A DNA stretch of 64,000 nucleotides from Oleiphilaceae bacterium (GTDB lineage Bacteria; Pseudomonadota; Gammaproteobacteria; Pseudomonadales; Oleiphilaceae), in the NCBI GenBank assembly GCA_965230795.1, contig OZ246020.1, forward strand, positions 1,554,585 to 1,618,584, written 5' to 3'. A program made the translations under genes and the position numbers. Of the stretch, positions 328 to 41,537 are shown piece by piece (the stretch's first letter is position 1; every line of letters starts with the position of its first letter). The notes below the pieces were generated by a model. That model did no database searches. It worked only from the letters and a program-made list of their open reading frames with translations, and was not told the origin of the DNA.

Positions 328-1020
328 TCATCGGCTAATCTCGAACTTGTAACCGACGCCATAAATGGAGTGAATCAGCTCCTGATCGCTCACGACAGAG
401 TGAATTTTCTGGCGCAGTTTTTTAATGTGGCTGTCGATGGTCCGATCACTGACCACACGATGCTCGCTGTAGATCTGTTGCATCAGTTGTTCCCGATTAA
501 ACAGCCGGCCCGGTTCGCGGGCAAGGGTCGCCAGCAAACGAAACTCGACGGCAGTGAGATCGAGTGCTTGACCTTGCCACCGGGCCTCATATTTGGATTC
601 ATCCAACGATAGAGGCCCTGATTTCGATTCTGTTTGGCGCGCTGCGGAGTGTGTCGAAACGCGACGCAGAATTGCCTGAACCCGCGCGACCACCTCCCGA
701 TAGCTGAAGGGTTTGCAGACGTAATCATCGGCGCCGGCTTCCAGCCCGAGCAGTCGGTCAATTTCTTCTACTCGTGCCGTGGCCATGATGATAGGGATAT
801 CAGAAAAAGTTCTGACTTCACGGCACACGGCCATGCCGTCTTTGCCGGGAAGCATCAGATCCAGAATCATGAGGTCGACAGGGGTCTGTCTGATCCAATC
901 CGCCACCTCCAGACCATTGCCGATAATATGCGTTTGAAAGCCGGCCTGCTTCAGATAGTCGCTCATCAGCTCGGCCAGTTTGGGTTCGTCTTCGACGATT
1001 AGAATGTGTTGTTCCGTCAC
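328..1020 (-). CDS. OmpR-family two-component response regulator (BaeR/CusR/CpxR-like)
   Basis: N-terminal receiver (LIVEDEPKLAELMSDYL...DLMILDLMLPGKDG...DDYVCKPF) and C-terminal winged-helix trans_reg_C (LTAVEFRLLATLAREPGRLFNREQLMQQIY). It follows the kinase gene on the same strand. Confidence 0.9.
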   Translation of the reverse strand: MTEQHILIVEDEPKLAELMSDYLKQAGFQTHIIGNGLEVADWIRQTPVDLMILDLMLPGKDGMAVCREVRTFSDIPIIMATARVEEIDRLLGLEAGADDYVCKPFSYREVVARVQAILRRVSTHSAARQTESKSGPLSLDESKYEARWQGQALDLTAVEFRLLATLAREPGRLFNREQLMQQIYSEHRVVSDRTIDSHIKKLRQKIHSVVSDQELIHSIYGVGYKFEISR

Positions 1021-1094
1021 GAGGAAAGGGTCCGCTTATGAAGTGTCCGGGTCTGTCATTGGTTCCGGCATTGATTCCCTGAAAAAGTGTAGCG

Positions 1095-2822
1095 CTAAAC
1101 CCTGGATAACGGCAGTTCAATATGAATCGCGAGGCCTCCGAGCGAAGACGGCGCAGCATGTATGGTGCCGCCATGGGCGAGGACAATCTGTTTACAAATA
1201 CCCAGCCCCAAACCCGAGCCACCACTTTTACGATTGCGTGAGGCGTCGACCCGAAACAGCGGATCAAAAAGTTTTTCCAGATACCGGCTGGCAACACCCG
1301 GCGCTGAATCATCAATCATTACATGGATTTTTTCCTGATCAGCATCGACCCGGATCCGGATTTGACCGGGTGCATCGGTGTACTTGATGGCATTGGTGAG
1401 CAGATTTCTGATCAGTTGCTTCAATCGGTGAGGGTCCGCCCACACCGGTATCGCCTGACTAGCACTTTCCAGCGTCACGGTGAGTCCCTGGTCAGAGGCC
1501 ACGCTTTCAAAATGGTGGACTTCATGCTCCAGCAAGGCCCGCAGATCAAGCTCGGTCTTCTGATATTGAAGTGCGCCGAGTTCAGCGCTGCTGAATTCAT
1601 ACAGGTCATTGATCAAATGATGCAGATGTTTGATCTCGTCATGGGCAGACTGCAGGTTTTCGGTGCTGGCCGGACGCACACCATCGATCATGGCTTCGAG
1701 CTCGCCACTCGCCACTGACAGCGGTGTTCTGAGTTCATGGGAAATATCAGCAAACCATCGCCTGCGCGTACTTTCGTTTTCTTCCAGTGTTTTAGCCAGT
1801 TCATTGAAGTCGCGACTCAGCTGTCCCAGTTCATCGCTGGATGTCACCTTGAGCCGATGGGAAAATTCACCTTTGGCAACTTGTCGTGTGGCGGTTGCCA
1901 GATGTTTGATACGCCTCAACAAAAGGTAACTCAGGGGAAGGGCCAGGGCGGCAGACAGCAGTAACATCACCAGACTGATGCTGAGAAAGCCGGTTTGCAG
2001 CTCTTCCGCCAGAGCCAGATCAAAATCCTCACTGAGACGATCCGGTGGCGTGAAGGCAAACCAGCCAATTACTGTGTCGCCCTGATCCAGCGTGATGGGG
2101 GTCAGGCGGGTGTCATCATTGTCTGGATCAAACTCACCGACCACCGCCTGCTTCAGCAAATTCAGCACCGCAATGGGAGCCCGGGGTTCAAAAGCGGATG
2201 CATTGTCTGTCGGTTCCGGTCTCGGAGGGCCAAAACCGGGCCTTGCAGAAAAGGGAGACTGTTCTCGCAAGCCTCGTGGTGGCGGGCGTCGGGCCTCACC
2301 TTCGGAAAAACGCCGGGGAGGGGGCGGGCGTCGTGATTCGTCATGGGGTCGAAAGCTGCCTGGAGGTGGCTGCCCCACAGGCGCCGCATTCCGGGCCAGC
2401 CAGTCAATCAGTCGAGGATTGTTTTTGAGAAAGTCCCAGCTACCGTGGTTTTGATAGCCTACGGCCAGCTGCTCAATAATCTGCAAATGCGCCTGGTGTT
2501 CCCGCGTGTTGACGTATTTGAGCAGGCCCTTGTCGACGGTCCACTGAGTGAGCGCGTACATGCCTAGTACCAAGGCAGCGCAACTGCACAAAATAATGAG
2601 AAAGAGTTTGGACTGAATACGCACGCCCGATTTCCAACCGTTTGCCCTGAATGTGTTCGCACTATACGAGACTTCGTTCGCAAATTCATGGCTGCGCTGC
2701 AGCTTCCTCATTTGCTGCACATTTCCACCACAATTGCTGCCCATTTGCCTCGTAGCATTCCCTTCCAGCCACCGGATTGCATCGTGATGATGTGCTGATC
2801 CGGATTTTCGAGACAGCCTCAA
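1095..2822 (-). CDS. sensor histidine kinase (BaeS/CusS-like) with Pro/Arg-rich periplasmic domain
   Basis: Two TM segments; HAMP; HisKA H-box ISHELRTPLSV; HATPase_c G-boxes (DDSAPGV, GGSGLGLGICKQIV). The periplasmic loop carries a low-complexity RRPPPPRRFSEGEARRPPPRGL...PRPEP segment. The true start is probably internal, near MRKLQRSH at about 2708; the long-ORF start is not trusted. Confidence 0.85.
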   Translation of the reverse strand: MRLSRKSGSAHHHDAIRWLEGNATRQMGSNCGGNVQQMRKLQRSHEFANEVSYSANTFRANGWKSGVRIQSKLFLIILCSCAALVLGMYALTQWTVDKGLLKYVNTREHQAHLQIIEQLAVGYQNHGSWDFLKNNPRLIDWLARNAAPVGQPPPGSFRPHDESRRPPPPRRFSEGEARRPPPRGLREQSPFSARPGFGPPRPEPTDNASAFEPRAPIAVLNLLKQAVVGEFDPDNDDTRLTPITLDQGDTVIGWFAFTPPDRLSEDFDLALAEELQTGFLSISLVMLLLSAALALPLSYLLLRRIKHLATATRQVAKGEFSHRLKVTSSDELGQLSRDFNELAKTLEENESTRRRWFADISHELRTPLSVASGELEAMIDGVRPASTENLQSAHDEIKHLHHLINDLYEFSSAELGALQYQKTELDLRALLEHEVHHFESVASDQGLTVTLESASQAIPVWADPHRLKQLIRNLLTNAIKYTDAPGQIRIRVDADQEKIHVMIDDSAPGVASRYLEKLFDPLFRVDASRNRKSGGSGLGLGICKQIVLAHGGTIHAAPSSLGGLAIHIELPLSRV

Positions 2823-2858
2823 GGGGCAACTATCTTTGGTAAATAAGGGGAGTCGATC

Positions 2859-4457
2859 ATGATCACACCACGCGGTTTTTCGCTACTGATTCATGCTACC
2901 AGCCTGGCTTGGTTGATATGCGTCTCAGGCTTGGTCTTTTCCATATCCGGGTGCTCGTCGGGCAGCAGCAATAGCAGCGACAGCGACACACTTGTCGAAT
3001 CCGACGACTCCGGTATGGAGACCGATCCAGATGAGGAGCCCAGTGCTTTGGATCTGGCGCTTCAGGAGATCATTGATGATTTTGGCCTGGCGACGCCGGT
3101 CGCGACCGATCATCTGCCCAGTATTGAAGAGGCGCTTCCGCAACTGGGTATGAAGCTGTTCTATAGCAAGAGTCTGGGGGGCGATTTTGATGCGGCTTGT
3201 GTCAGCTGCCATCACCCGGCATTGGGTGGCGCTGATGGCCTGTCGTTGCCTGTCGGTGTGGATGCATTGAATCCTGATCTGTTGGGCCCCGGGCGTGTGA
3301 ATGAAGAGGGCATCCCGCTGGTACCACGCAATTCACCCACGGTCTTCAACGCCGGTTTGTGGGACACCGGCCTGTTCTGGGACTCAAGGGTTGAGAGTAT
3401 TGGCAAGGAGCCCGCTACGAACGGAGCCGTGTCGGGCATTCGCACCCCGGACAGCGAGTTTCTTGTCGCAGATCCTGATGCCGGTGCCAATCTGGCAGCC
3501 GCGCAGGCCCGTTTTCCGGTCACTTCAGAAACTGAGATGCAGACAGATCGTTTCGAGATCGGTTCGGATAATGACACGGTGCGCGCGCATCTGGCCGCAC
3601 GGATTGGTGATTACGGTGTCGGAGAAGGCGAGTTGGATGAGAACAATTGGCTGGAGGCGTTTCAGGAGGCCTTTGGTGTCTCGGCGGATGCAGAATCCCT
3701 GGTGACCTTTGATGCCATTGCGCAGGCTATCGGTGAATATGAGCGCTCCATGGTGTTTATTGACAGCCCATGGCGGCAGTATCTGGAGGGGGATCTGGAT
3801 GCGCTCAGCGAGGATGCCAAAGCAGGAGCCCTGCTGTTTTTTACTCCGGTGGCCCAGGGTGGAGCAGGTTGCGGAGCCTGCCATAACGGGCCGCTGTTCA
3901 GCGATGGACAGCACCATACACTTGCCTTTCCCCAGGCCGGACCCGGGGCAGGGGATGCCGACAACGATGATTTTGCCCGCGAGCGTGAAACCGGGAACTC
4001 GGATGACCGCTATCGTTTCCGTACTCCTTCGTTGCTGAATATCGCCCAGACAGCTCCCTATGGGCATGCGGGGGTATATGAATCGCTGACTGAGGTGGTG
4101 CGACACTATGTGAATCCGGGACGGGCCGTCAATGACTTTTTTAACTCCGGAGGTTTGTGTGGCAATGCCCAATTTGCCGATGTCGATGATTGCGAGTCAC
4201 TGTACCCGGACAATGAAGCCAACTCGGCTAAAGCGCTTGCCAAACTCCAGCAGGAAATCGATGCCGGTACCACGCGCTTCCAGCCGCCGCGATTGAACAA
4301 TACTGAAGTCGAGCAAGTAGTCGCCTTTCTTGAAGCCCTGAGCGACCCCTGCGTGCCTGACAGGGATTGCCTCGCGCCCTGGATACCCGACACTGCCGAC
4401 ACCGGCCCCGATGGTCAACAGCTGAATGCTGTGAATTCGGTTGGGGATTTTTTGTAG
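2859..4457 (+). CDS. di-haem cytochrome c peroxidase / MauG-family lipoprotein
   Basis: Lipoprotein signal (LVFSISGCSS). Two c-type haem motifs, CVSCHHP and CGACHNG. The overall CCP/MauG fold signature is present (PxxFNxxxxWDGR-like NSPTVFNAGLWDTGLFWDSR; RTPSLLNIAQTAPYGHAG). 532 aa with an N-terminal acidic extension. Confidence 0.8.
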   Translation: MITPRGFSLLIHATSLAWLICVSGLVFSISGCSSGSSNSSDSDTLVESDDSGMETDPDEEPSALDLALQEIIDDFGLATPVATDHLPSIEEALPQLGMKLFYSKSLGGDFDAACVSCHHPALGGADGLSLPVGVDALNPDLLGPGRVNEEGIPLVPRNSPTVFNAGLWDTGLFWDSRVESIGKEPATNGAVSGIRTPDSEFLVADPDAGANLAAAQARFPVTSETEMQTDRFEIGSDNDTVRAHLAARIGDYGVGEGELDENNWLEAFQEAFGVSADAESLVTFDAIAQAIGEYERSMVFIDSPWRQYLEGDLDALSEDAKAGALLFFTPVAQGGAGCGACHNGPLFSDGQHHTLAFPQAGPGAGDADNDDFARERETGNSDDRYRFRTPSLLNIAQTAPYGHAGVYESLTEVVRHYVNPGRAVNDFFNSGGLCGNAQFADVDDCESLYPDNEANSAKALAKLQQEIDAGTTRFQPPRLNNTEVEQVVAFLEALSDPCVPDRDCLAPWIPDTADTGPDGQQLNAVNSVGDFL

Positions 4458-4461
4458 CGCA

Positions 4462-4484
4462 AGACCAGGGATGGTCTTTTTTTA
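4462..4484 (+). terminator. rho-independent terminator after the peroxidase gene
   Basis: Perfect stem AGACCA-ggga-TGGTCT followed by a T7 run (4462-4484), immediately after the stop at 4457. Confidence 0.6.
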
Positions 4485-4845
4485 TGAATACTGGCACAGC
4501 GCCGAATCCGGTGCTTCCTGCAATGACGTTGTCTCAGCTAGTTTATTGACCGGTTGTGACGACGTATCGCGGGGCTCTCTCATACTTGCCCTCAGTACTC
4601 TTCCTCGTTTTGTCTTACATGCAAGCTGGCCTTCTTCCCCGAACTGATCCGTTGTCGATTGCACACCGCTTGGGTCCATTGACTCAGTCTGCATTGTGTA
4701 TTTTTCCTTCCTGCTTTCACTGCTGCCTGCTCCGTTTGAAATAGTAATGAATCGTTACTGATCTATGAAATGCAGATGTAACGAAACATTGCTTTTGTCT
4801 TTTGTTGATTTCATAAAAACTATAAATATCAATTAGTTAAAAAGT

Positions 4846-4861
4846 TGGCACGCCCCTCGCT
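4846..4861 (+). promoter_or_regulatory. candidate sigma54 (-24/-12) promoter upstream of the RiPP precursor gene
   Basis: TGGCACGccccTCGCT: GG at 4847-4848 and GC at 4859-4860 with exact GG-N10-GC spacing. It lies about 95 bp upstream of the ATG at 4957, in an AT-rich intergenic region. An NtrC-family activator is encoded 4 kb downstream. Confidence 0.45.
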
Positions 4862-4956
4862 ATGTCTTAGGTGTATTTAGCAAATCGCTGTCGAAATCGT
4901 CCGATTCCGGGCAGCGGAACATTCAAACCTTTTGGTTAACTATAGAGAGAACGAGT

Positions 4957-5376
4957 ATGAAAAATGCAACTCTTAAAAACACTTTGACTGCCGCTATCGG
5001 TTCATTCGTTGTTACGGGTCTGGCAACTTCCGCCGCTGTTCAGGCCGACTCAAACCCATTTGCCGCGACAGAGCTTAGCAGCGGCTACATGCTGCTGGCC
5101 GAGGGCTCCTGTGGAGAGGGTAAATGTGGTGCCAATGCCACCCTGACCGAGAAAAAATCTGAAGGCGCCTGTGGCGAAGGCAAGTGTGGTGGCGATAGCC
5201 ACTCCAACAAAACCGCGGAAGGTGCCTGTGGTGAGGGCAAATGTGGCGGTGATGAAAAGGCAGCCAGCAAAACCTCTGAAGGCGCGTGTGGTGAAGGAAA
5301 ATGTGGCGGCGATGCGAAACCCGCAGGCAAAACCTCTGAAGGTGCCTGTGGCGAAGGCAAGTGTGGCCACGCCTAA
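4957..5376 (+). CDS. secreted Cys-rich RiPP precursor with five tandem EG[AS]CGEGKCG repeats (bufferin BUF_EGKCG / HvfA-like)
   Basis: Good RBS (agagagaacgagtATG). Sec signal MKNATLKNTLTAAIGSFVVTGLATSAAVQA. Core is 5 x (K)TSEGACGEGKCGGDxxxxxK with 10 Cys, all in an EGxCG context. It is encoded by drifting ~60-nt tandem DNA repeats and followed by DUF692-DUF2063-DoxX. Confidence 0.8.
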   Translation: MKNATLKNTLTAAIGSFVVTGLATSAAVQADSNPFAATELSSGYMLLAEGSCGEGKCGANATLTEKKSEGACGEGKCGGDSHSNKTAEGACGEGKCGGDEKAASKTSEGACGEGKCGGDAKPAGKTSEGACGEGKCGHA

Positions 5377-5480
5377 TCCTCCTTCAACGAATCATGTGGC
5401 GGGTTGCCGCCACATGCGACCCACACATTCGAGGACGCTGCAAGAGTGTCCTGCCATCAGGTTTTTAACCGGAGAATACA

Positions 5481-6386
5481 ATGACTCAATCACGTGATCA
5501 GGCGCATGAATTTACACCGTCAATCAAAGGTGCGGGCCTGGGTTTACGTCGTTCCTTATTGAATCAGCTTTCGAGTGAAGATGTCGCCTCCAGTTCATCA
5601 GATGTGTTGGACTTTTTTGAAGTGGCGCCGGAAAACTGGATCGGTGTCGGCGGACGTTTGGGTCGCCAGCTAAAGGAAATTAGCGAGAAAAAGACAGTGA
5701 TTGCCCATGGATTGTCCTTGTCTGTTGGTGGCATGTCACCCTTGAATATCGAGTTGGTCAAGGACATTAAGCACTTTCTCAATGAACACAATATGCCAGT
5801 TTACAGCGAGCATCTGAGCTACTCGGCGGATGACGGCAACTTGTACGATCTGCTGCCACTGCCATTCACCGGGGAAGCGGTGAAGCACGTATCGGCACGA
5901 ATCCGACAGGTTCAGGACATGCTTGAACGCCGCATCGCCATCGAAAACATTTCTTACTATCTGGATTTGTCCAAAACGGTTGCTGGCCACACCATGACCG
6001 AAGTGGAGTTTATCAATGCGGTCTTGCAGGAGGCTGACTGCGATCTCTTGCTCGACGTCAACAACGTCTATGTGAACAGCCAGAACCATGGCTATGATCC
6101 CTTGCAGTTCCTGGCGCAGCTCAATGCCAAACATGTCTCCTACATTCATGTGGCCGGGCACTATCAGGAAGACGATGGTTTTATCATCGATACCCATGGT
6201 GCCGAGGTGATTGACCCGGTGTGGTCACTGCTGGCGACCGCCTATGAACACTTTGGTGTACTGCCGACCTTGCTGGAACGCGATTTCAATTTGCCGGCCC
6301 TGGCCGATCTGAAAAGCGAACTGGCGATCATCAAAGATCTTCAGGCAGCAGCCTCCGTGCATCAGCAGAAGGGGGTTGCCGCATGA
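5481..6386 (+). CDS. DUF692-family multinuclear non-heme iron oxidase (MNIO; BufB/HvfB/MbnB-like)
   Basis: TIM-barrel DUF692 signature blocks (GLGLRRSL, DFFEVAPENWIGVGG, AHGLSLSVGG, PVYSEHLSYS, HVAGHYQEDDGFIIDTHG). Sits directly downstream of the precursor gene. Confidence 0.9.
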   Translation: MTQSRDQAHEFTPSIKGAGLGLRRSLLNQLSSEDVASSSSDVLDFFEVAPENWIGVGGRLGRQLKEISEKKTVIAHGLSLSVGGMSPLNIELVKDIKHFLNEHNMPVYSEHLSYSADDGNLYDLLPLPFTGEAVKHVSARIRQVQDMLERRIAIENISYYLDLSKTVAGHTMTEVEFINAVLQEADCDLLLDVNNVYVNSQNHGYDPLQFLAQLNAKHVSYIHVAGHYQEDDGFIIDTHGAEVIDPVWSLLATAYEHFGVLPTLLERDFNLPALADLKSELAIIKDLQAAASVHQQKGVAA

Positions 6387-7144
6387 GCGCCTTGAGTTTA
6401 AACCAGTACCAGGAAGATCTGGCACTGTACCTGCGAGACCCTGAAAACAAGGCAATGCCACAACATTTGGATGAGCGACGCGCAGGTGTGTATCGCGATC
6501 TCGTGTTTAACAACATCGAAAGTCAGCTTGCGTCAGCATTTCCGGTGATTCACAGTCTCTACGACAGCGAATCATGGCAAGTTCTGGTTCGTGAATTTTT
6601 GCGAGACTTCCGGGCGCAAACCCCGTATTTCACCCAGCTATCGAAGGAGTTTGTGAGCTTTCTGGCAACCCGGACTGAAGAGGAAACGAATACTGAAAAA
6701 CAGCCGGCCTTCCTGCTGGAACTCGCGCACTACGAGCGTGTGGAAATCGATCTTTTCATGCGCAATGAATCCTATGAACGCAAGGAGCTGGATGATCATG
6801 CCTTAGTGAATGAAGCGCTGGGACTGGTGTCTACCGTCCAGCTTCTGGCCTATGCCTACCCGGTGCACCGCATTGCTCCTGACTATCAACCGCAACAAGC
6901 GCCGGAGTCGCCGACCATGTTGTTGTTATTTCAGGATGAAGAGGGCGAGGTGCGCTTTTTTGAGTTGCAGACTTTGGCCTACGAGCTGGTTTCTGCATTG
7001 GCGGAGGGTAAGCCGGCGACAGGCTTTGCACTTCTTCGGGCTTTGGCAGAACGCTTTCAGCTTCCCTTTACGCCGGCATTTCAGCAGCAGGGCCTGCAAT
7101 TGCTGGCTCAACTTAACCGTTTGAAAGTATTGCGAATTCAGTAA
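6383..7144 (+). CDS. DUF2063-family partner protein of the MNIO (BufC/HvfC-like, precursor recognition)
   Basis: Start overlaps the DUF692 stop (ATGA), indicating translational coupling. The N-terminus (YQEDLALYLRDPENKAMPQHLDERRAGVYRDLVFNNIESQLASAFP) is typical of the DUF2063 putative DNA-binding-like domain found next to DUF692 genes. Confidence 0.8.
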   Translation: MSALSLNQYQEDLALYLRDPENKAMPQHLDERRAGVYRDLVFNNIESQLASAFPVIHSLYDSESWQVLVREFLRDFRAQTPYFTQLSKEFVSFLATRTEEETNTEKQPAFLLELAHYERVEIDLFMRNESYERKELDDHALVNEALGLVSTVQLLAYAYPVHRIAPDYQPQQAPESPTMLLLFQDEEGEVRFFELQTLAYELVSALAEGKPATGFALLRALAERFQLPFTPAFQQQGLQLLAQLNRLKVLRIQ

Positions 7145-7179
7145 CAGGATTCGTCCCACTTATTCTCAGGACTATAATC

Positions 7180-7782
7180 ATGATCACAGCAATTAATCGA
7201 CTACAGGATCTTTTTGATCATTCCAAACGCCTGGATTTTCTGGCACCTCTGCTATTGCGCATTTATCTGGTTCCTGTTTTCTGGATGGCAGGCATTCAGA
7301 AGCTCAGCCATTTTGACAACACCGTAGCCTGGTTCGGGAATGAGGATTGGGGGCTGGGCTTACCCTTTCCGTGGCTGATGGCCGCGCTGGCTGTGGCCGC
7401 TGAGCTTGGCGGTGCCGTGTTGCTGGCCATCGGTCTGGCGACGCGCTGGGTATCGATTCCCATGATGTTCACCATGTTTGTCGCGGCGGTGTCAGTGCAT
7501 TGGCAGAACGGCTGGCTGGCAATCTCTACCGGCTCCGGCGTCTTCGCAACAGAACGGACGGTGGGTGCCATTGAGCGCCTGGAACGTGCCAGAACGATCC
7601 TGCAACAGCATGGCAATTATGAATGGCTAACGGAGCACGGATCCATTGCAATTTTGAATAACGGTATCGAGTTTGCCGCCACCTATTTCATCATGTTGCT
7701 GGCGCTCCTGTTTATTGGTGCGGGACGTTATGTGAGTGCGGATTACTGGATCGCAAAGCGCTTTCGTCGCGCCGTCAACTAG
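7180..7782 (+). CDS. DoxX-family membrane protein
   Basis: Four predicted TM helices. The DoxX-like N-terminus (LAPLLLRIYLVPVFWMAGIQKL) is conserved as the fourth gene of DUF692/DUF2063 operons. Confidence 0.8.
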   Translation: MITAINRLQDLFDHSKRLDFLAPLLLRIYLVPVFWMAGIQKLSHFDNTVAWFGNEDWGLGLPFPWLMAALAVAAELGGAVLLAIGLATRWVSIPMMFTMFVAAVSVHWQNGWLAISTGSGVFATERTVGAIERLERARTILQQHGNYEWLTEHGSIAILNNGIEFAATYFIMLLALLFIGAGRYVSADYWIAKRFRRAVN

Positions 7783-7802
7783 AACATATCAGAGCTAAGG
7801 AC

Positions 7803-9164
7803 GTGCCAGCGATGTCAACTCGTGTTTTCTGCTTGAGGCAGTATACTCTTGATGGCGAACTGATAAACGAACATAAGGCTGATATGACAGCAGACACTTC
7901 TCAAACGGGCGAAGTCCTTTCCAATCTGGATCAGGAAAAAGCCATTGCCTCGCTGGCTGCACTGAGTTATCGGACAGGCGAGCTGGATGACTATTTAAAG
8001 CAGATATGTCAGGCCGTGTTGGATGTGCTGGGCGATGGGGCCGCGGCGGTCACCCTGTATCGCAATGGCAAGAAGAATGTCATTGCCCGGGTGCCGCACA
8101 GTCCAAAAGTCGGAATGCCTCTGGATGTGCATGGCCATCTGTCTACCTTCGTGGTGGAGAGCGGTAAACCGCTGCGGGTGTCCGATGCGATCGCACACCC
8201 GGAATATGGCAATCCACCTGAAGGCTTTTGTTCCTATCTGGGCATTCCATTAAAACTGCCAGACGGCAAAGTGGTAGGCACGCTCTGTTACTTCGATAAA
8301 TCAAAGCGTGATTATGGTACGAAAGATGAGCAGATCGCCAGCCTGTTTGCCGAGCGAATCGCCGTCGCCCTGGATAATTACGAGCTGTATTTGCAGTTGA
8401 AACATCACTCGGAAAATCTGGAAGCGCTTGTTGAAGAGCGCACCCGGGCCTTGATGGCAACGCAGCGGGAACTCATGCAGAAAGAGAAGCTGGCAGCGAT
8501 CGGTGAATTTGCCAGTCATCTGACCCATGAGATTCGTAATCCGCTGGCGACCATCAAATTGGCTCTTGAGTATTTTGAGCGTTTGGAGGATGCGCGCTCG
8601 GCAAAGCGCGCCAGTTTGGCATGTTCGGAAATTTCACGTCTGGAGCGCATGTTAAGTCAGGTACTCAGCTATGCGCGGCCAACCGAATTACATAGCACGG
8701 TCATCAATCTGAGCGAGTTCCTGGATGAGTTTATCGCCACCAACGATGCCATGCTGGCGGAAAAGGATCTGCGCTTTGTCGTTGAAAAAGATGCCAGCCC
8801 TCAGGTCAAAGTGGATGTTGATAAGTTTGCGCAAGTCTTGTTGAATCTGGCATGCAATGCGGTTGAAGCGGCGGGAGCGAAACAGTCGATTACCTGGCGT
8901 CTGGCCGGCACCAAAACGCATGCAGTGCTGAGTATTCATAACGGTGGCGACACCATACCCGAAGACAAGCTCGCTACGATTACCGACGCCTTTGTCAGTT
9001 CCAAAACCAAAGGCACCGGGCTGGGTCTGGCGATTGTGAAAAACCTGGTGGAAACACATCAGGGAGAGCTGGAAATCTGTTCCTCAGAAGCGTCCGGAAC
9101 ACTCGTTACCTTGCGGCTGCCCCGTTGGACCGGAGATCTCAGCCATGAAGAGGGAGCGCGCTGA
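7803..9164 (+). CDS. GAF-domain sensor histidine kinase
   Basis: N-terminal GAF-like region (ALSYRTGELDDYLKQICQAVLDVLGD...). HisKA H-box HLTHEIRNPLATI. HATPase_c (NLACNAVEA, GTGLGLAIVKNLVETHQGEL). No TM segments, so it is cytoplasmic. The start may be the internal ATG near 7885. Confidence 0.85.
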   Translation: MPAMSTRVFCLRQYTLDGELINEHKADMTADTSQTGEVLSNLDQEKAIASLAALSYRTGELDDYLKQICQAVLDVLGDGAAAVTLYRNGKKNVIARVPHSPKVGMPLDVHGHLSTFVVESGKPLRVSDAIAHPEYGNPPEGFCSYLGIPLKLPDGKVVGTLCYFDKSKRDYGTKDEQIASLFAERIAVALDNYELYLQLKHHSENLEALVEERTRALMATQRELMQKEKLAAIGEFASHLTHEIRNPLATIKLALEYFERLEDARSAKRASLACSEISRLERMLSQVLSYARPTELHSTVINLSEFLDEFIATNDAMLAEKDLRFVVEKDASPQVKVDVDKFAQVLLNLACNAVEAAGAKQSITWRLAGTKTHAVLSIHNGGDTIPEDKLATITDAFVSSKTKGTGLGLAIVKNLVETHQGELEICSSEASGTLVTLRLPRWTGDLSHEEGAR

Positions 9165-10526
9165 ATGAATGCTCGCATCTTGCTGGTTGAAGATGAACAG
9201 GCGCTCGCCCAGATGCTATCGATGCATTTTGAGGATGAAGGCCATGAGGTCTTTCATGCCAGCAATCTGGCTGAAGCTCGGGAGTTGGCGGAGCAGCAGC
9301 CAGACTTGATTTTGATGGATCAGGGGCTGCCTGATGGCAAGGGCTATGACCTGTTGTGTGAATTACAGGAGCAGGGAAGCGGTGCCCTGATGATTATGAT
9401 GACGGCGGAGCATGATCTTGAATTGGCAATCGCCGCCATCAAGGCCGGCGCCTTTAACTTCATCCACAAGCCGATAAAAACTGATGAACTCAACCACACG
9501 GTTATTAAAGCTCTTGAGCATCAAAAGCTGTCCCGTCAGGTCGAGGTGCTGAGCGCAAAGGATGATCCTGTTATTAATGAACCACGCTTGCTGGGTAAAA
9601 GTCAGGCCATGCTTGATATCAGCAAGGAAATCGCACTGGTGGCAGACAGTAACACCCGAGTATTGATAACAGGCGAAAGCGGGACCGGTAAGGAACTGAT
9701 TGCCCACGCCATTCATCACCATAGCCAACGGCCAGGGCCGTTTATGGCCATCAACTGTGCGGCCCTGGTGGATAATTTGCTGGAAAGCGAGCTGTTTGGT
9801 CACGAACGCGGCGCCTTTACCGGTGCGACCGACCGCAAGCCCGGCAAGTTTGAACTGGCTGAGAACGGAACCCTGTTTCTGGATGAGGTGGGCGAGATGG
9901 CGCTGCCTCTGCAGGCCAAGTTATTGCGCGTTTTGCAGGAAGGCAACTTTGAGCGGGTAGGAGGGAGTCAGCAGTTGTTCACCAATGCCAGGGTCATTGC
10001 CGCAACCAACCGAAACCTGCCGCAGGAAATCGAAAAAGGGCATTTTCGGGAAGATTTGTATTATCGGCTGAATGCCATGGAGATAAAGCTGCCACCACTT
10101 CGCCAGCGCAGTGAAGATATTCCCAGTCTGGTAGAGGGTTTGCTTGAACGCATCTGTCGGGCCGAAGGCAAAGGGCTGATGCAAATTACCCCTGCGGCGC
10201 TGAGCTTGCTTTTGCAATACAGCTGGCCGGGAAATATCCGAGAGTTGCACAATGTGCTCACCCAGGCCGTCATCCGTGCGCGTAGTCATTTTATTGGTCC
10301 GGGTGAACTGACTATTAAAGGTGATGAGTCGTGCCCGGACGAGGCATTTGTCTCGGAAAACAATGACCCCCTAAGCTTGGCCGACATGGAGGCCCGGCAT
10401 ATTCAGCATGTGCTGAATCACTGTCACGGCAACAAAGCGCAAACGGCCAAGCTACTGGATATTTCTCGACCGGCTCTGGATCGCAAAGTGGATAAGTATG
10501 GACTGGTGGTGGAAAAGGGCTTGTGA
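9165..10526 (+). CDS. sigma54-dependent response regulator (NtrC family)
   Basis: Receiver domain ([14 protein letters not shown]...[14 protein letters not shown]). Sigma54 AAA+ domain ([39 protein letters not shown] motif, arginine finger region). C-terminal Fis-type HTH ([20 protein letters not shown]). The start codon abuts the kinase stop. Confidence 0.9.
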
Positions 10527-28890: not shown

Positions 28891-29556
28891 GTGGTTTCCA
28901 TGAAAGCAAAATCATCTGCACATTATCAGCGTGAATATCGCAAACGCCTGCGAGAGCAGGGTTTGGTTAAAAAGGAGGTGTGGATACTTCCGGAAAACGC
29001 GAAGCGCCTTTCTGCCTACGAGAAAGTGCTTCGGTCGCGTGTTTCGGGGGAGTCTGCCCAGTTTGATTTTCAATTAGGAGTGAGTGGAATGAGCAATGAT
29101 TCAGATAGTGTCTTGAAAGCCTGGACGACTGAGGGCTTGTTGGATGCCTTGGGTAAGGAGTCCTTGGTTAGCAGTGGCCAGGCAAGGATAGAATTAATTG
29201 ATGGGTTGGAGTCAACGCTGCTGATCGAGATGAAAGAGTATGGAGACCTTCCTGTATTTCTGACGGTTTCCGGTGAGCAGATTATTGTTGAGGCTGTCAT
29301 GTGGTCAGTGGATGAAGTGACCGATGTGGCCGCATTTAACGATGCGATTCTGCGGACTCATAAATTTTTTCCTTTATCCACAATCAGTTTGGACAAGGTC
29401 GGTGAAGAAGGAGATTACTATCACATGTTCGGGGCGTTGAGCTCGACATCTCTGCTCTCCAACGTGGTGTTTGAAATTGAAGTTTTGGCAAGCAACGTAA
29501 TTCAGGCAACAGAAGCTTATAGTGAGTTTTTGTCCGTCCCTGTGGCCGCTAACTGA
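28891..29556 (+). CDS. hypothetical protein, first gene of the PspA-flotillin cluster (possibly DUF2170/YjfI-like)
   Basis: 221 aa, acidic, no TM. It directly precedes a PspA-like gene, as yjfI precedes yjfJ in E. coli. The basic N-terminus (HYQREYRKRLREQGLVKKEV) could bind nucleic acid. Confidence 0.45.
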   Translation: MVSMKAKSSAHYQREYRKRLREQGLVKKEVWILPENAKRLSAYEKVLRSRVSGESAQFDFQLGVSGMSNDSDSVLKAWTTEGLLDALGKESLVSSGQARIELIDGLESTLLIEMKEYGDLPVFLTVSGEQIIVEAVMWSVDEVTDVAAFNDAILRTHKFFPLSTISLDKVGEEGDYYHMFGALSSTSLLSNVVFEIEVLASNVIQATEAYSEFLSVPVAAN

Positions 29557-29574
29557 TAGCGAAGGAGTGATTAA

Positions 29575-30267
29575 ATGAATATATGGGCGAAAATGATGAC
29601 TGCGCTTCGTGGAGGTGTTAACGAGGCGGGTGAGGCTCTGGTGGACAGTCAGGCCCTAAGGATTCTGGACCAGGAAGTTCGTGAGGCTTCGCAGGCTTTA
29701 CAGGATTCCAAGAACAGCTTGGCTGAGATTATGGCTCGTCAAAAGGTCGCCGAAGAGAAGTGTGCGTCCTTTAAAAAACAGATCAAAGAACACGAGGGTT
29801 ATGCTATCAAAGCGCTCGAGAAGGCGGACGAGAGGCTGGCTCGTGAAGTGGCAGAAAAAATTGCTGATTTGGAAAGCCAGTGTAGTCAAGAGCAGGAGTC
29901 TGCTGATGGCTTTGCTGCAAGTGCAGAGAAGATGCGAATGGCCATCAAGCAAACAGAGCGTAACCTTAAGCGTTTGAAGCAACAGGTTGATACGGTCAAA
30001 GCCACTGAGAATGTTCAGCGGGCGCAGGCAGCAGTGGCTGAGCGTCACAGTGGCTCGCACTCAAAAATGAGGACAGCAATGGATTCACTTGATCGGATCA
30101 AAGATAAACAAGCGCTGAAGGCAGCGCAGATGGCTGCGGCGAGTGAGTTGGCAGAACAGACCTCCGACGTCTCGCTGCAGGCGAAACTTGAAGAAGCTGG
30201 CATCGCTGGAAGTGGCAGTAGTGCCGACGATATTCTGGAGCGCTTGAAGAGCAAAGCTTCTAAATAA
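29575..30267 (+). CDS. PspA/IM30-family protein (ESCRT-III superfamily)
   Basis: MNIWAKMMTALRGGVNEAGEALVDSQALRILDQEVREASQALQDSKNSLAEIMARQKVAEEK... An all-helical coiled-coil of 230 aa typical of PspA/YjfJ. Confidence 0.8.
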   Translation: MNIWAKMMTALRGGVNEAGEALVDSQALRILDQEVREASQALQDSKNSLAEIMARQKVAEEKCASFKKQIKEHEGYAIKALEKADERLAREVAEKIADLESQCSQEQESADGFAASAEKMRMAIKQTERNLKRLKQQVDTVKATENVQRAQAAVAERHSGSHSKMRTAMDSLDRIKDKQALKAAQMAAASELAEQTSDVSLQAKLEEAGIAGSGSSADDILERLKSKASK

Positions 30268-30298
30268 AACGTGAAAAATCAATAAGGAGGAGTCGGGA

Positions 30299-30988
30299 AT
30301 GTTTGCGATATTTTTGATGGATGACATGGATCCGTTTTACCAGAACATTGCGTCATTTCCGACTGTAATTTTTACCTTTCTATTATTGCTCGTCGTGCTT
30401 TACTGGTTGGTGGCAGTTTTGGGATTGATAGACATCGATGTGCTCGATTTTGATATACCTGAAGCAGATGGAATGGACATCAATCCAGATACGGGCTTGA
30501 CTAATGCCAACGTGCTGGCCGGGCTCATGCTGCGTTTTGGACTTCATGGTGTTCCGGTAACGATTATTCTGTCGTTCATCGCGTTATTTGGCTGGTTTGT
30601 TTGTTACTACGCAGTTCATTTTCTCATGGGGATCATTCCGGAGGGCTTGCTCGCTTTTCTGGCGGGTATCCCGGTTTTTTTTGCATCCCTTTATGTTTCA
30701 GTAATGGTAACGGCATTAGTAATCAAACCGCTGCGGCCACTTTTCAGCAAGGCGTCTCAAGACACCTTGAAAAGGGTACTGGGTCAGACGGCGATCGTTC
30801 GTACCTCGCGTGTTGACAATAATTTTGGGGAAGCAATTCTCGAGGATGGTGGCGCTGGTTTACTTCTCAAAGTGAGAACGATTGGCGAGACAACTTTCTC
30901 AAGGGGAGACAGGGTTGTGCTGCTTGAATATGACAAAGAAAAAAATACTTACCGTGTAATTTCTGAAGAAGAATTTGCCGGTAGCTAA
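30299..30988 (+). CDS. NfeD-like membrane protein (YqiJ/YuaF-like, flotillin partner)
   Basis: Four or five TM helices, then a C-terminal OB-fold NfeD domain (GQTAIVRTSRVDNNFGEAILEDGGAGLLLKVRTIGETTFSRGDRVVLLEYDKEKNTYRV). It immediately precedes the flotillin gene. Confidence 0.7.
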   Translation: MFAIFLMDDMDPFYQNIASFPTVIFTFLLLLVVLYWLVAVLGLIDIDVLDFDIPEADGMDINPDTGLTNANVLAGLMLRFGLHGVPVTIILSFIALFGWFVCYYAVHFLMGIIPEGLLAFLAGIPVFFASLYVSVMVTALVIKPLRPLFSKASQDTLKRVLGQTAIVRTSRVDNNFGEAILEDGGAGLLLKVRTIGETTFSRGDRVVLLEYDKEKNTYRVISEEEFAGS

Positions 30989-31025
30989 CAATCAAAAAAT
31001 TTAATCTGGTAATGGAGTAACCGTT

Positions 31026-32975
31026 ATGACCGAGAGTTTGCCGTTGTTGATGCCTATTCTATTTGGCGTCGGAATTTTCTTTATCATTTTGATGGGGTTG
31101 GCCGCGCTCTTCAAAGCTTTCTATATCAAGGTAGAGCAGGGCACAGCCCTTATCGTAAACGACATGTCGTCGAAACCGAAAGTGCATTTCACCGGCGCAC
31201 TGGTATATCCGATCATTTACAAAAAAGAGTTGATGCGCATTTCGCTTATCACTCTGGAAATAGATCGTCGAGGCAAAGATGGTTTGATCTGCGCAGACAA
31301 TATGCGAGCGGATATCACTGTCGCATTCTATCTGCGGGTGAATGAAACCGCTGAGGACGTTTTAAAGGTTGCCAAATCAATCGGTTCAAGTCGTGCTTCC
31401 GATAAAGACGCGGTCAATGAGCTTTTTAACGCGAAGTTTTCTGAAGCCTTGAAGTCGGTTGGTAAGCAGGTTGAATTTGTCCAGCTGTTTGAAAACAGGC
31501 AAAAGCTGAGAGATTCAATTGTTGAGTGTATTGGCAACGATCTGAATGGTTATGTTCTTGAGGATGTGGCCATTGATTATCTGGAGCAAACACCCAAGTC
31601 CGCTCTGGATCCTCACAATATTCTTGATGCGGAAGGTATTCGCAAGATTACAGAGCTCACCGCCACACAAAATGTACAAACCAACAATTATGAGCGAGAT
31701 GAAGAACTCGCCATCAAGAAAAAGAACGTTGAGACAGTGGAAGCGATGTTATCACTGGAGCGTCAGCAGGCAGATGCGGAAGCCAAACAGGAGCGTGAGA
31801 TCGCTACGTTGCGTGCGCGCGAAGAAGCTGAAACCAAGAAAGTCCAGGAGGAGCAGCGCAAGATTGCAGAGGAAACCACAATCAAGGTGGAGCAGGAGTT
31901 GCAAGTTGCTGCAGAGAACCAGAAGCGGGAAATCGAAGTTGCGGAACAGAATCGTCTTCGCGCCGTCGCGATTGAAGAAGAAAAAGTGGTTCGTGCTAGA
32001 GATCTGGAAGTCGTCGACAGGGAGCGTCAGGTTGAGCTGGACAAAATCGCCGCTGAAAAAGCCCTGGAGGTTGAAAAGAAAGAAATTGCCAACGTTATCC
32101 GTGAGCGAGTTGCAGTAGACAAAACGGTTGCGGTTGAAGAGGAGCGTATAAAAGAAGTACGTGAAGTCTCAGAGGCAGATCGACAGAAGCAAACGCAGGT
32201 GCTGGCTGCGGAGGCTGCGGCTGAAGAAGATAAAGTCAAGCAAGTAAAAGCCGCAGAGGCAGAGGAAATCGCGGCGAAACACAAAGCAGTCGAGATCACG
32301 ACGATTGCTCAGGCGGAGCTCGAGGAAGCAGCCAAAAAAGCGGATGCGAAGAAGAAATTGGCCGAGGGTACACAGGCAGAAAGGGCCGCGCCAGGCTTGG
32401 CTGAAGCAAAAGTACAGGAAGCGAAAGCGGCTGCCCTGGAGAAAGAAGGACGTGCTGAAGCGGAAGTTATAAGAGCCAAAGGTGATGCAGAGGCGGATGC
32501 CTTGTCTGGTACAGGTAAGGCGCAGGCAGATGTGACCGCAGCACAGGGTGACGCTGAAGCACAAGCGGCCAGACAGTTAGGTCTCGCAAACGCAGAAGTT
32601 ACTCGTGAGCAGTTTAAAGCGGAAGCCGATGGTTTGGTTGAAAAGTTTGAGGCCATGAACACGATGAGTGAGGATGCTCGAGAGCACGAAGAGTACCGAA
32701 TGGGACTGGAGACTGCGCTGAAAGAGGCATTGGCATCTATCGAGGCTGGTAAAGATATCGCTAAAGAAAATGCCGAAGTGCTTGCCGTGGCCCTGCAGAA
32801 GGCGAAGATTGATATCGTTGGTGGTGAAGATCACTTCTTCGATAATTTCGCCAAGTCACTTTCAATTGGTAAGGCGGTAGATGGTCTGGCCGGTAAGAGT
32901 GATACGATTCAGTCACTGATCGATAGGGTGATTAGCGGCAAGAAGCCGACGGTTGTGGACGCAGAAAACGACTAG
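31026..32975 (+). CDS. flotillin-like SPFH/band-7 protein (FloT/YqiK-like) with long EA-rich coiled-coil
   Basis: N-terminal TM hairpin; SPFH domain (QGTALIVNDMSSKPKVHFTGALVYPIIYKKELMRISLITLEIDRRGKDGLICADNMRADITVAFYLRV). Extended flotillin E/A repeats follow (AEAKQEREIATLRAREEAETKK...). Confidence 0.85.
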   Translation: MTESLPLLMPILFGVGIFFIILMGLAALFKAFYIKVEQGTALIVNDMSSKPKVHFTGALVYPIIYKKELMRISLITLEIDRRGKDGLICADNMRADITVAFYLRVNETAEDVLKVAKSIGSSRASDKDAVNELFNAKFSEALKSVGKQVEFVQLFENRQKLRDSIVECIGNDLNGYVLEDVAIDYLEQTPKSALDPHNILDAEGIRKITELTATQNVQTNNYERDEELAIKKKNVETVEAMLSLERQQADAEAKQEREIATLRAREEAETKKVQEEQRKIAEETTIKVEQELQVAAENQKREIEVAEQNRLRAVAIEEEKVVRARDLEVVDRERQVELDKIAAEKALEVEKKEIANVIRERVAVDKTVAVEEERIKEVREVSEADRQKQTQVLAAEAAAEEDKVKQVKAAEAEEIAAKHKAVEITTIAQAELEEAAKKADAKKKLAEGTQAERAAPGLAEAKVQEAKAAALEKEGRAEAEVIRAKGDAEADALSGTGKAQADVTAAQGDAEAQAARQLGLANAEVTREQFKAEADGLVEKFEAMNTMSEDAREHEEYRMGLETALKEALASIEAGKDIAKENAEVLAVALQKAKIDIVGGEDHFFDNFAKSLSIGKAVDGLAGKSDTIQSLIDRVISGKKPTVVDAEND

Positions 32976-33065
32976 GGGTAATCCTCCTGAACTGTCCGAA
33001 TGGCAAGTTGGGTGTCTTTGAGATTCTCGACTTGTTTCCACCATCGTTAAAAAAGGAAAAAGTTC

Positions 33066-38468: not shown

Positions 38469-38479
38469 GGCATTCCAGA

Positions 38480-39073
38480 ATGTTCCCCGGTCTTTGGCTC
38501 AAATTCAGGCTGCTCATTTGTTTGTTAGCGGTCATGATTGGGGTTCATGCGGTGAATATGACGCTGGACGGACAGCTTATTCAATACGGGATTATTCCAA
38601 GGTCAGAGGAACATTGGTTTCATGTGTTCATCTCACCTTTCATTCATGTTGATCACGTTCATTTGCTTAACAATTTGTTCGGGCTGGCAATATTCAGCGT
38701 TCTTTGCCTAATGCGTTCGGTAGGACTGTATATCCTCTGCAGTATTTTTGTTATCACCTCAACAGGTTTATTGGTGTGGTTGTTCGCTCGCAGCGCCATT
38801 CACCTTGGTGCTAGTGGTTGGATATTTGGTTTATGGAGTTTTGCCATTGCGATTGCCTGGTTTGATCGGAAATTGATAAACATTGTTTCCAGTTTTCTGG
38901 TGGTCTTTTTATATGGGGGGATGATTTACGGCGTATTGCCTAGTGATCCAAATGTTTCTTTTGAAGCTCATCTTTTTGGCGCTTTGTCAGGTGCGTTGTT
39001 TGCATTTTTTTATTCAGTGTATGTGAAAGCCACGCGGCGTTCTCAATCACGGTCTTCAGTGGCGGGGAACTGA
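38480..39073 (+). CDS. rhomboid-family intramembrane serine protease
   Basis: Six TM helices; catalytic GxSG (IHLGASGWIFGL) in TM4 and His (AHLFGALSGALFAFF) in TM6. Confidence 0.75.
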   Translation: MFPGLWLKFRLLICLLAVMIGVHAVNMTLDGQLIQYGIIPRSEEHWFHVFISPFIHVDHVHLLNNLFGLAIFSVLCLMRSVGLYILCSIFVITSTGLLVWLFARSAIHLGASGWIFGLWSFAIAIAWFDRKLINIVSSFLVVFLYGGMIYGVLPSDPNVSFEAHLFGALSGALFAFFYSVYVKATRRSQSRSSVAGN

Positions 39074-39075
39074 AA

Positions 39076-40838: not shown

Positions 40839-41537
40839 TTGAGTAAACATACGAGAATTGAAGAGTTCCTTTGCGTTTCGTTTGAAGATTTCAAGCTCTC
40901 CCAGGGCGAGAAATATTCGTTGAGAGAGCTTTTGGATAACTTGGGAGACAATGAGCTGTTGTCGTTTGCCCGTAATAAGGCCTTTGATTTATATCGGGAG
41001 TACCATATTGCCGAGTCTGGGGATTCTCTGCAGGGTCTCAACTGGTTGGAGAAAGTTATCAAAACGATCGATAACGTCAGGCTAAACAGCATCGAGTCCA
41101 ACTCTTACGCGTATTTTAGTCCAGGTCCTGAATGCGCCAGGCAGATCATCAACTGCTTGCATGGCGCAAGAGAAACCATTGATATATGCGTGTTTACGAT
41201 CTCCGACAATCATATTACTGACGCGATTCTATCAGCACACGAGACTGGGAAGAGTGTTCGCATCGTGAGTGATAATGATAAAGCAAAAGATAGTGGCTCC
41301 GATATTTACTATCTGGCTGAAAAAGGTGTGCCGGTCCGGCTAGATAAAAGTCCCTACCATATGCATCATAAGTTCGCGATTTTTGACCAAAATCTGCTGA
41401 TCAATGGCAGCTTTAATTGGACTCGAAGTGCCACCATGAAGAACGAAGAAAATATAACCGTTCTGCATGATTCAGGCTTGATCGGCTCTTTTTTATCTTC
41501 CTTTGAGGAATTGTGGTCAGAGTCGAAAGATATATAG
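40839..41537 (+). CDS. phospholipase D-like (single HKD motif, Nuc/endonuclease-type) protein
   Basis: HMHHKFAIFDQNLLINGSFNWTRSA is a canonical HxK(x)4D(x)6GSxN motif present in one copy (dimeric Nuc-like). The listed start is TTG; the real start is uncertain. Confidence 0.7.
   Translation: MSKHTRIEEFLCVSFEDFKLSQGEKYSLRELLDNLGDNELLSFARNKAFDLYREYHIAESGDSLQGLNWLEKVIKTIDNVRLNSIESNSYAYFSPGPECARQIINCLHGARETIDICVFTISDNHITDAILSAHETGKSVRIVSDNDKAKDSGSDIYYLAEKGVPVRLDKSPYHMHHKFAIFDQNLLINGSFNWTRSATMKNEENITVLHDSGLIGSFLSSFEELWSESKDI

Follow-up and report, generated by a model that had tools for sequence, protein, structure and literature searches.

A predicted HvfABCX-type copper-peptide operon in an Oleiphilaceae genome and its candidate sigma-54 control module

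Peptides of the EGKCG type are RiPPs (peptides synthesised on the ribosome and modified after translation) defined by cassettes carrying two cysteines each (PMC12452194, PMC12538549). Their cysteines are converted to 5-thiooxazoles with the loss of four hydrogens per Cys, and the products absorb at about 302–305 nm and bind Cu(I). Published surveys list from 2,000 to more than 20,000 such clusters; genomes by the thousand are already known to encode the peptide family, and biochemical work covers four of its members. Here we analyse a locus of this kind in a stretch of 64,000 nucleotides from an Oleiphilaceae bacterium (assembly GCA_965230795.1, contig OZ246020.1, positions 1,554,585 to 1,618,584 of the forward strand), the whole of which we refer to as the window. 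In this window a predicted hvfABCX operon is preceded by a candidate sigma-54 control region and followed by genes for a histidine kinase and an NtrC-type response regulator. With this locus a known and abundant cluster class gains a new, uncharacterised member, as an earlier reading of the bare DNA letters (the original prediction) had expected. The locus adds little on the peptide family itself; only the regulatory module goes beyond published knowledge.

The locus can be compared with several known systems. Oxazolin is the product of hvfABCX in nontypeable Haemophilus influenzae: its precursor HvfA contains three AEGKCGEGKCG motifs, the six Cys of which are all modified by HvfBC, and the product binds approximately one Cu(I) per pair of modified Cys (PMC11252979). 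The modification was first described as oxazolone/thioamide and has been reassigned to 5-thiooxazole (10.64898/2026.06.05.730506), a reassignment that covers EGKCG peptides generally (10.1101/2025.11.18.689057; 10.64898/2026.06.05.730506). The original prediction had allowed for either chemistry; its thiooxazole half is the one that agrees with this reassignment. Bulbicupramide, encoded by mmrABC in marine Microbulbifer, is formed from MmrA with the loss of four H per Cys, that is eight per cassette, and chelates copper (PMC12538549). Fontiphorin (fonABC, Fontimonas thermophila) and gonophorin (Neisseria gonorrhoeae) are 'captophorins' of the Lys-Cys group, in which EGKCG motifs become 5-thiooxazoles that absorb near 305 nm and bind copper (10.1101/2025.11.18.689057). 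The bufferins of Caulobacter vibrioides, Buf1 (DUF2282) and Buf2, function in copper-stress protection (PMC11626156, PMC12452194). In methanobactin biosynthesis (mbnABC), too, a multinuclear non-haem iron oxidase (MNIO, formerly DUF692) oxidises the Cys of a ribosomal peptide into copper ligands.

The hvfABCX genes and their class

Four genes on the forward strand follow one another in the order hvfA, hvfB, hvfC and hvfX (Table 1), and the product of each passes a curated NCBIfam model. HvfB scores 404.7 bits against NF003818 (cut-off 360), HvfC 239.5 bits against NF050145 (cut-off 142), HvfX 239.8 bits against NF050144 (cut-off 80) and the precursor 82.3 bits against NF050137 (KCGExKCG_twice; E=1.4e-23, cut-off 19.5, four matched stretches). 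Since three curated equivalog models and the precursor domain model pass and Pfam agrees, we assign the locus to the HvfABCX-type RiPP operons (oxazolin / Buf_EGKCG / 'captophorin'), and put the probability of this reading, taken together with the pathway and the regulation proposed below, at roughly 0.8. This is the bufferin/HvfA class of copper RiPP operon that had been named beforehand, with matches to PF05114, PF09836 and PF07681 suggested as the check. All three families do match (Table 1), the DoxX gene does come after hvfC, and the predicted translational coupling of the DUF692 and DUF2063 genes is seen in an ATGA overlap of the hvfB stop and the hvfC start at 6383-6386. The DoxX-family HvfX is frequent, though not obligatory, in EGKCG clusters.

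Table 1. Predicted features of the hvf locus and of its upstream neighbours; positions count from the first letter of the window, and majority identity refers to a nine-locus comparison
Feature	Position	Strand	Basis or remark
Candidate enhancer site 1 (upstream activating sequence, UAS), imperfect palindrome GTAATGAATCGTTAC	4744-4758	.	Majority identity 0.87
Candidate enhancer site 2 (UAS) GTAACGAAACATTGC	4778-4792	.	Majority identity 0.90; centre 34 bp from site 1
Conserved A/T-rich block, TATCAATTAGTTA then AAAAAG	4827-4845	.	Majority identity 0.89
Predicted sigma-54-type -24/-12 promoter TGGCACgccccTCGCT	4846-4861	+	Majority identity 0.92
Conserved block that coincides with the predicted transcription start or directly follows it	4864-4890	+	Majority identity 0.88, against 0.57 for 4891-4956
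hvfA-type precursor gene	4957-5376	+	139 aa; NF050137 match, cassettes, conserved leader
Predicted signal peptide, precursor aa 1-30	4957-5046	+	Read by hand
Leader NPFAATELSSGYM, precursor aa 33-45	5053-5091	+	Motif conserved in homologues
Five EG[S/A]CGEGKCG cassettes	5101-5130, 5161-5190, 5218-5247, 5278-5307, 5338-5367	+	Inside the precursor open reading frame
Strong hairpin CATGTGGCGG-GTTG-CCGCCACATG	5393-5416	+	10-bp stem, between hvfA and hvfB
hvfB, MNIO	5481-6386	+	301 aa; PF05114 E=6.7e-100
hvfC, DUF2063 partner with RRE-like C-terminal domain (RRE, RiPP recognition element)	6383-7144	+	253 aa; PF09836 E=1.3e-21, PF22106 (NGO1945_C) E=6.1e-21
hvfX, DoxX-family membrane protein	7180-7782	+	200 aa; PF07681 E=1.3e-22; hydrophobic segments
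Soluble GAF-HisKA-HATPase histidine kinase gene	7812-9164	+	Pfam domains; longest open reading frame from GTG 7803
NtrC-type sigma-54-dependent response regulator gene	9165-10526	+	PF00072, PF00158 (E=4.7e-69), PF02954
MauG/MbnH-like di-haem cytochrome c peroxidase gene	2859-4457	+	Lipoprotein-type signal (…SISGC), two CxxCH
OmpR-type response regulator and HAMP histidine kinase genes	328-2822	-	Divergent from the MauG-like gene; nearest BaeR/BaeS (envelope stress)

At the level of structure, HvfB aligns with PDB 3BWW, the MNIO of Histophilus somni, at E=3.6e-75, and also with MbnB structures; the 3BWW enzyme is itself 72% identical to H. influenzae HvfB. HvfC matches PDB 3DEE at E=1e-8. The motifs HGLSLS, SEHLS, IEN, LDVNN, IHVAGH, DTHG and LERD of HvfB align with those of 3BWW and MbnB, and its metal-ligand residues read H76, H111, E155, D192/N195, H223, D237/H239 and E266. 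In H. influenzae HvfB the site-3 residues N175, D242 and H244 are essential (10.64898/2026.07.17.739211), and the D-x-x-N and D-x-H of the present HvfB match them by motif, which is a correspondence of motifs and not a direct alignment.

The likeness to oxazolin covers the gene order A-B-C-X, a predicted Sec signal and two-Cys cassettes of the form xEGxCGEGKCG, together with the passing HvfB, HvfC and HvfX models and the retained site-3 ligand motifs. The two systems differ in that the precursor here has five cassettes and 10 Cys, as compared with three cassettes and 6 Cys in H. influenzae HvfA, carries Ser or Ala in place of Lys ahead of the first Cys of each cassette, and is without the disulfide pair of N-terminal Cys. 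The present operon also has a sigma-54 two-component system joined to it, and it belongs to a free-living gammaproteobacterium of marine or saline habitats, where H. influenzae is a pathogen. With bulbicupramide the locus shares a marine gammaproteobacterial host and EGKCG two-Cys cassettes, the number of which varies among Microbulbifer strains (5-8 Cys, against the 10 Cys of this locus). The bulbicupramide cluster consists of mmrA-C only, with the flanking open reading frames (ORFs) deemed uninvolved, whereas the present operon is joined by a DoxX gene and a two-component system. Fontiphorin and gonophorin likewise depend on an MNIO with a DUF2063 partner (3DEE-like), and are unlike the present system in repeat layout (seven sites in FonA) and in their regulators.

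The bufferins have in common with it the enzyme superfamily and partner, a precursor with a Sec signal (predicted in the present case) and a DoxX gene. Their precursors, however, are folded, non-repeat domains, the BufB model NF050167 gives HvfB 265.9 bits, under its cut-off of 310, and Buf1 is controlled by the extracytoplasmic function (ECF) sigma factor SigF, with NrsF as anti-sigma factor, and not by sigma-54. Methanobactin is set apart by its oxazolone/thioamide product, its partner MbnC, a short peptide whose leader is cleaved off, and genes dedicated to export and to TonB uptake; the methanobactin MbnB model TIGR04159 gives HvfB only 39.3 bits (cut-off 325).

The gene order A-B-C-X recurs in those related loci that possess hvfA. 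The related hvf loci come from sediment and other environmental metagenomes, and in a scan of GTDB representatives no relatives of HvfB above 58% identity were found. A search with a conserved housekeeping protein, biotin carboxylase, puts the host among the Gammaproteobacteria of marine or saline habitats, with Saccharospirillum (87%) as the nearest named match and Marinobacter, Methylophaga and Reinekea next. In one long-read assembly (L016, 10001-12728) hvfB and hvfC are split and the C-terminal tail of hvfA is aberrant, damage that is due to frameshifts or assembly errors.

Precursor cassettes and predicted product

Read by hand, the precursor opens with an n-region, MKNATLKNTLT (residues 1-11, net charge +2), continues into a 16-residue hydrophobic stretch (residues 12-27) and ends its signal with a heuristically placed AxA-type cleavage site between VQA and DS, in the layout of signal peptidase I substrates. 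This arrangement of n-, h- and c-regions is common to the homologues and fits the Sec signal proposed at the outset. Behind it lies a leader of the NPFxxTELSSGYM type and then the cassettes, which are spaced 20/19/20/20 residues apart and contain all of the precursor's Cys, in good agreement with the five repeats of about 20 residues and 10 Cys that had been described. The linkers that separate the cassettes are variable and rich in Lys, Thr and Ser, and Tandem Repeats Finder reports the gene as a repeat with a period of 60 nt, 76% matches and 3.5 copies. When the 64-kb window was scanned in six frames, no further precursor was found.

There is next to no chance that the repeat ORF is a low-complexity artefact and no gene, a reading already refuted by the sequence evidence. 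It is true that some source annotations name homologues 'uncharacterized low-complexity protein' and that three more frames are open across the repeat; the latter (5050-5370 on the minus strand, 5085-5360 on the minus strand and 5171-5497 on the plus strand) are frame shadows. The repeat ORF, however, matches NF050137 far above its cut-off, has 1162 homologues at E<=0.001 with a conserved leader and predicted signal peptide, occupies a fixed place ahead of hvfB and has undergone essentially synonymous-only drift. When the ten codons of the cassette core were compared pairwise among the five copies, we counted 46 synonymous as against 4 non-synonymous codon differences, all four of the latter being Ser versus Ala in cassette 1. 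Judged by this ratio, the cassettes are evidently under purifying selection at the level of the peptide, as the original prediction had argued from the synonymous drift of the DNA repeats.

To place the precursor within its family, we took cassette and leader statistics from the best 120 of the 1162 homologues. Of these 120, 111 have the leader pattern NPFxxx[LM]xx[GS]Y. The strict cassette count peaks at three to four, with five or six cassettes in 7/120, and within the immediate clade the number is three, five or six. By this count five cassettes lie at the high end among the closest homologues, yet are not unusual; with two-Cys cassettes as the family norm, the description of the fivefold repeat as 'unusually regular' had to be given up. 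The variation in cassette number among close relatives offers a natural test of copper stoichiometry per cassette. In the same sample, the residue before the second Cys is Lys in 384 of 388 cassettes; ahead of the first Cys, 322 cassettes have Lys, 49 have Ser and 14 have Ala. The S/A-Cys form of the first site is, by these counts, a minority sub-type and no novelty.

These frequencies bear on how many heterocycles are made. It is conceivable, but quite improbable, that only the five EGKCG Lys-Cys sites are converted and that the Cys of EG[S/A]CG remain free thiols or disulfides, which would give five heterocycles and not ten: the near-constant Lys of the second site beside a variable first site suggests that the enzymes may read the two sites differently, and the turnover of FonBC, the fontiphorin enzyme pair, varies with flanking residues. 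Against this, FonBC fully tolerates Ala, Arg or Thr where Lys precedes Cys (10.1101/2025.11.18.689057), purifying selection acts on the S/A residue, its Cys and the neighbouring Gly just as it does on the KCG site, and in MmrA and HvfA both Cys are modified in every cassette. Given the tolerance of FonBC at this position, we consider it likely, by analogy, that all ten Cys of the precursor are modified. The alternation of S/A-Cys and K-Cys in one substrate also provides a natural test of enzyme site selectivity.

The pathway that we propose follows the characterised systems. HvfA would be synthesised in the cytoplasm and probably gripped by HvfC through its RRE-like domain, with NPFxxTELSSGYM as the candidate contact. 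HvfB, an iron enzyme, would then use O2 to oxidise each cassette Cys, along with the carbonyl of the residue before it, by four electrons, producing a 5-thiooxazole with the loss of 4 H per Cys, at up to ten sites and for a total of about 40 Da. The modified, unfolded peptide would be exported via Sec and its signal cut after VQA30, leaving a 109-residue Gly/Ala/Glu/Lys-rich peptide, periplasmic or secreted. At approximately one Cu(I) per two-Cys cassette, this product could hold about five Cu(I) per peptide and buffer copper in the envelope, with HvfX acting as a predicted accessory membrane protein.

Downstream of hvfA, the hvfA-hvfB intergenic region folds at -40.5 kcal/mol (z = -3.97), and the hairpin listed in Table 1 may partially terminate transcription or stabilise the mRNA; it may thereby increase the ratio of precursor to enzyme. 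A terminator-like hairpin is found at the same spot in one related locus (L013) and not in another (L015), and the corresponding intergenic folds of L003 and L007 gave nothing significant; the hairpin is not conserved. At E<=1, Rfam gave no match in 4400-7900.

Several observations speak against the class assignment and the chemistry as we propose them. The precursor scores 75.9 bits against NF050188, the equivalog model of H. influenzae HvfA, where the cut-off is 95, and on this score we take it for a family member and not an orthologue-level equivalent of that protein; the N-terminal Cys pair that it lacks helps processing in H. influenzae HvfA. Half of the precursor Cys follow Ser or Ala in place of the canonical Lys, and the expected modification of these S/A-Cys sites rests on a tolerance measured for another enzyme, FonBC. 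DoxX is dispensable in Caulobacter, and the physiological role of the EGKCG peptides is itself debated between copper buffering and copper acquisition.

Candidate control region and kinase-regulator pair

We compared nine loci with differing upstream genes by majority identity and found that the region ahead of hvfA resolves into blocks at 0.87-0.92 that are separated by spacers at 0.56-0.64 (Table 1). The predicted promoter, TGGCAC-N5-TCGCT, has a single mismatch to TGGCAC-N5-TTGCW, with GG at 4847-4848 and GC at 4859-4860, and the expected transcription start lies at about 4871. Its TGGCA and TCGCTAT are invariant in the nine loci, and no sigma-70-like promoter was found on the plus strand. 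Position 4846, from which the original prediction had counted the operon, is the start of this sigma-54-type promoter, which it left unmentioned. Both candidate enhancer sites are imperfect palindromes of 15 bp; site 1 is one arm of a 19-nt inverted repeat, and the pattern GTAAYGNNNCRTTRC occurs in the 64-kb window only at 4744-4758 and 4778-4792. Within the A/T-rich block, TATCAATTAGTTA fits the consensus WATCAANNNNTTR of integration host factor (IHF), with TTCAA for ATCAA in several orthologues, and we infer a candidate IHF site at this position. The block at 4864-4890 could be a transcription-start region, an element of the 5' untranslated region or a second operator. Taken as a whole, the layout is, to judge from the footprint, that of a classical enhancer-dependent sigma-54 promoter.

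Downstream, hvfX and the kinase gene are separated by a gap of about 20-30 nt, and no terminator-like site was found on the plus strand between them. Because orthologues begin M-x-x-TRVF, the kinase probably starts at ATG 7812, and no hydrophobic or transmembrane segment was found in it. The start of the regulator gene abuts the kinase stop codon; the encoded protein consists of a receiver domain, an AAA+ domain with Walker A at aa 170 and GAFTGA at aa 216, and a Fis-type helix-turn-helix. A metagenome scan with the kinase as the sole query returned 11 close relatives at 72-85% identity, all 11 of which are encoded directly 3' of hvfX, or of the whole of hvfABCX on contigs long enough to include it. 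Next comes the sigma-54 regulator in every related locus whose contig continues; it is 79-84% identical in the loci that carry it, while the gene neighbourhoods upstream of hvfA vary from locus to locus. At a more distant locus (L029; kinase about 50%, regulator 67% and HvfX 65% identical) the linkage is kept even though three inserted genes, one of them a transposase gene, split hvfX from the pair within 437-7932; the kinase is split as well. As the kinase and the activator come after hvfX in 11/11 of the close kinase relatives, the transcription unit probably extends to 10526. The interval of 4846-7782 that was first given to the operon is correct for the genes inside it, but probably not for its end, since the conserved unit probably continues to 10526.

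In the regulatory scheme that we propose, the six genes would form a single unit transcribed from the sigma-54 promoter at 4846-4861. Upon a cytoplasmic signal the soluble GAF kinase would phosphorylate the co-encoded NtrC-type regulator, which, on the palindromes at 4744-4792, would activate this promoter.

Alternatively, the GAF kinase and the sigma-54 regulator could be mere neighbours that control other genes, with hvf under a different activator or promoter. A sigma-54 consensus scan is compatible with such a reading in that two-mismatch sites number 44 as against 40 expected by chance, and a related kinase does occur in another gene context (L030). We nevertheless consider it unlikely. 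The linkage holds in 11/11 close kinase relatives despite their differing upstream neighbourhoods, and the gap between hvfX and the kinase gene is short and free of terminators. The palindromes, moreover, are the sole such 15-bp pair in the 64 kb, lie 54-102 bp upstream of the sigma-54 site and are co-conserved with it, and that site is the only one-mismatch site that is both intergenic and correctly oriented.

Control of hvfABCX by the pair, which we favour over mere adjacency, has to be set against the following points. The related kinase on the Logan contig L030 comes without hvfX or the sigma-54 regulator, and this two-component system is absent from the Hvf loci whose HvfB is 48-58% identical. 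The -12 element reads TCGC and not TTGC, and the IHF-like match, which orthologues keep only imperfectly, lies near the -24 element. The regulatory link as such is inferred from synteny and footprinting and is correlative.

The signal that the kinase might respond to can be approached through its GAF domain (7812-8420), which is near-invariant in the 11 orthologues, where the whole proteins are about 70% identical, and which contains three invariant Cys. By sequence, its closest solved structure is the haem-binding GAF-A domain of Mycobacterium tuberculosis DevS (E=5e-7). The DevS 'YHP' segment, which we take to be the site of the proximal His, aligns to a gap in the kinase, and the GAF domain is apparently without the haem histidine of DevS. 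What the kinase senses might be Cu(I) itself, or else a gas or redox signal. That it is a dedicated cytoplasmic sensor which switches on a thiooxazole metallophore operon through sigma-54 is a speculative proposal to which we give a low probability. If true, no sensory input would have been defined earlier for an operon of the EGKCG peptide type, and the kinase might represent a novel sort of metal or redox sensor. A protein search with the GAF domain returned four proteins only and missed known close relatives, and thus says little on its distribution.

The nature of the sensor touches on the function of the peptide. With the same biosynthesis, the product could be a chalkophore for copper uptake, or a guard against another stress such as another soft metal, oxidants or sulfide, and not a copper buffer. 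The function of oxazolin is openly debated, with hvf expression linked to oxidative stress (PMC11252979), and the sensor here is not of the periplasmic CopRS/CusRS type, but a cytoplasmic GAF kinase nearest to a haem redox/gas sensor. Conversely, no TonB-dependent receptor, MbnT/MbnE-like uptake gene or exporter adjoins the operon, the characterised relatives bind Cu(I), and bufferins guard against copper excess. On balance we regard these other functions as somewhat unlikely, and copper buffering in the envelope as the preferred reading.

The inducing signal of EGKCG operons bears on their purpose, and an operon with its own sensor-regulator pair makes that signal directly testable; here, a cleanly footprinted candidate sigma-54 control region accompanies the conserved pair. 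No mention of such regulation of the EGKCG family was found in the surveys consulted or by text search, and a literature search on sigma-54 together with DUF692 gave only an unrelated genome-mining report. In a bufferin-family survey, neighbouring genes of unrelated function were assigned to a cluster only at a distance of no more than 10 bp, and with this limit the kinase would fall outside the survey's clusters.

A second one-mismatch sigma-54-like match, TGGCACGTCCTTAGCT, is present on the minus strand at 7793-7808, in the gap that separates hvfX from the kinase gene. No plausible gene lies downstream of this match, and it is probably due to chance.

Neighbouring genes and the wider window

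Two upstream candidates for a part in the hvf system were considered and set aside (Table 1). The MauG/MbnH-like protein scores under the cut-offs of both the MbnH and the MauG models, and its gene, which ends shortly before the predicted hvf promoter and has terminator-like hairpins of its own at 4419-4478, is absent from all related hvf loci and so probably unrelated. The BaeSR-like pair was set aside as a candidate copper sensor: it falls below the heavy-metal and BaeSR cut-offs and is unlinked in relatives.

On the other side of the operon, a gene for a 255-aa proteasome-subunit-like protein (PF00227; 10605-11372, minus strand) converges on the end of the regulator gene, and its product gave no NCBIfam match at E<=1e-10. 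Further downstream, where the GC content drops from about 0.55 to 0.47 at approximately 28 kb of the window, a same-strand cluster (28891-39924, plus strand) encodes a DUF2170 protein, PspA/IM30 and two proteins without Pfam domains (229 and 649 aa), then a 1800-aa DUF3686/DUF7902/AAA ATPase (33066-38468), followed by a rhomboid protease and by an M90 peptidase that carries a SEC-C motif. The segment from 40000 to 63600 is low in GC (0.40-0.50) and contains a PLD-like nuclease-family gene (40839-41537), a phage-type integrase gene (53157-54281) and several large ORFs without a Pfam match, such as one of 976 aa at 60123-63053 on the minus strand; it looks like one or more genomic islands.

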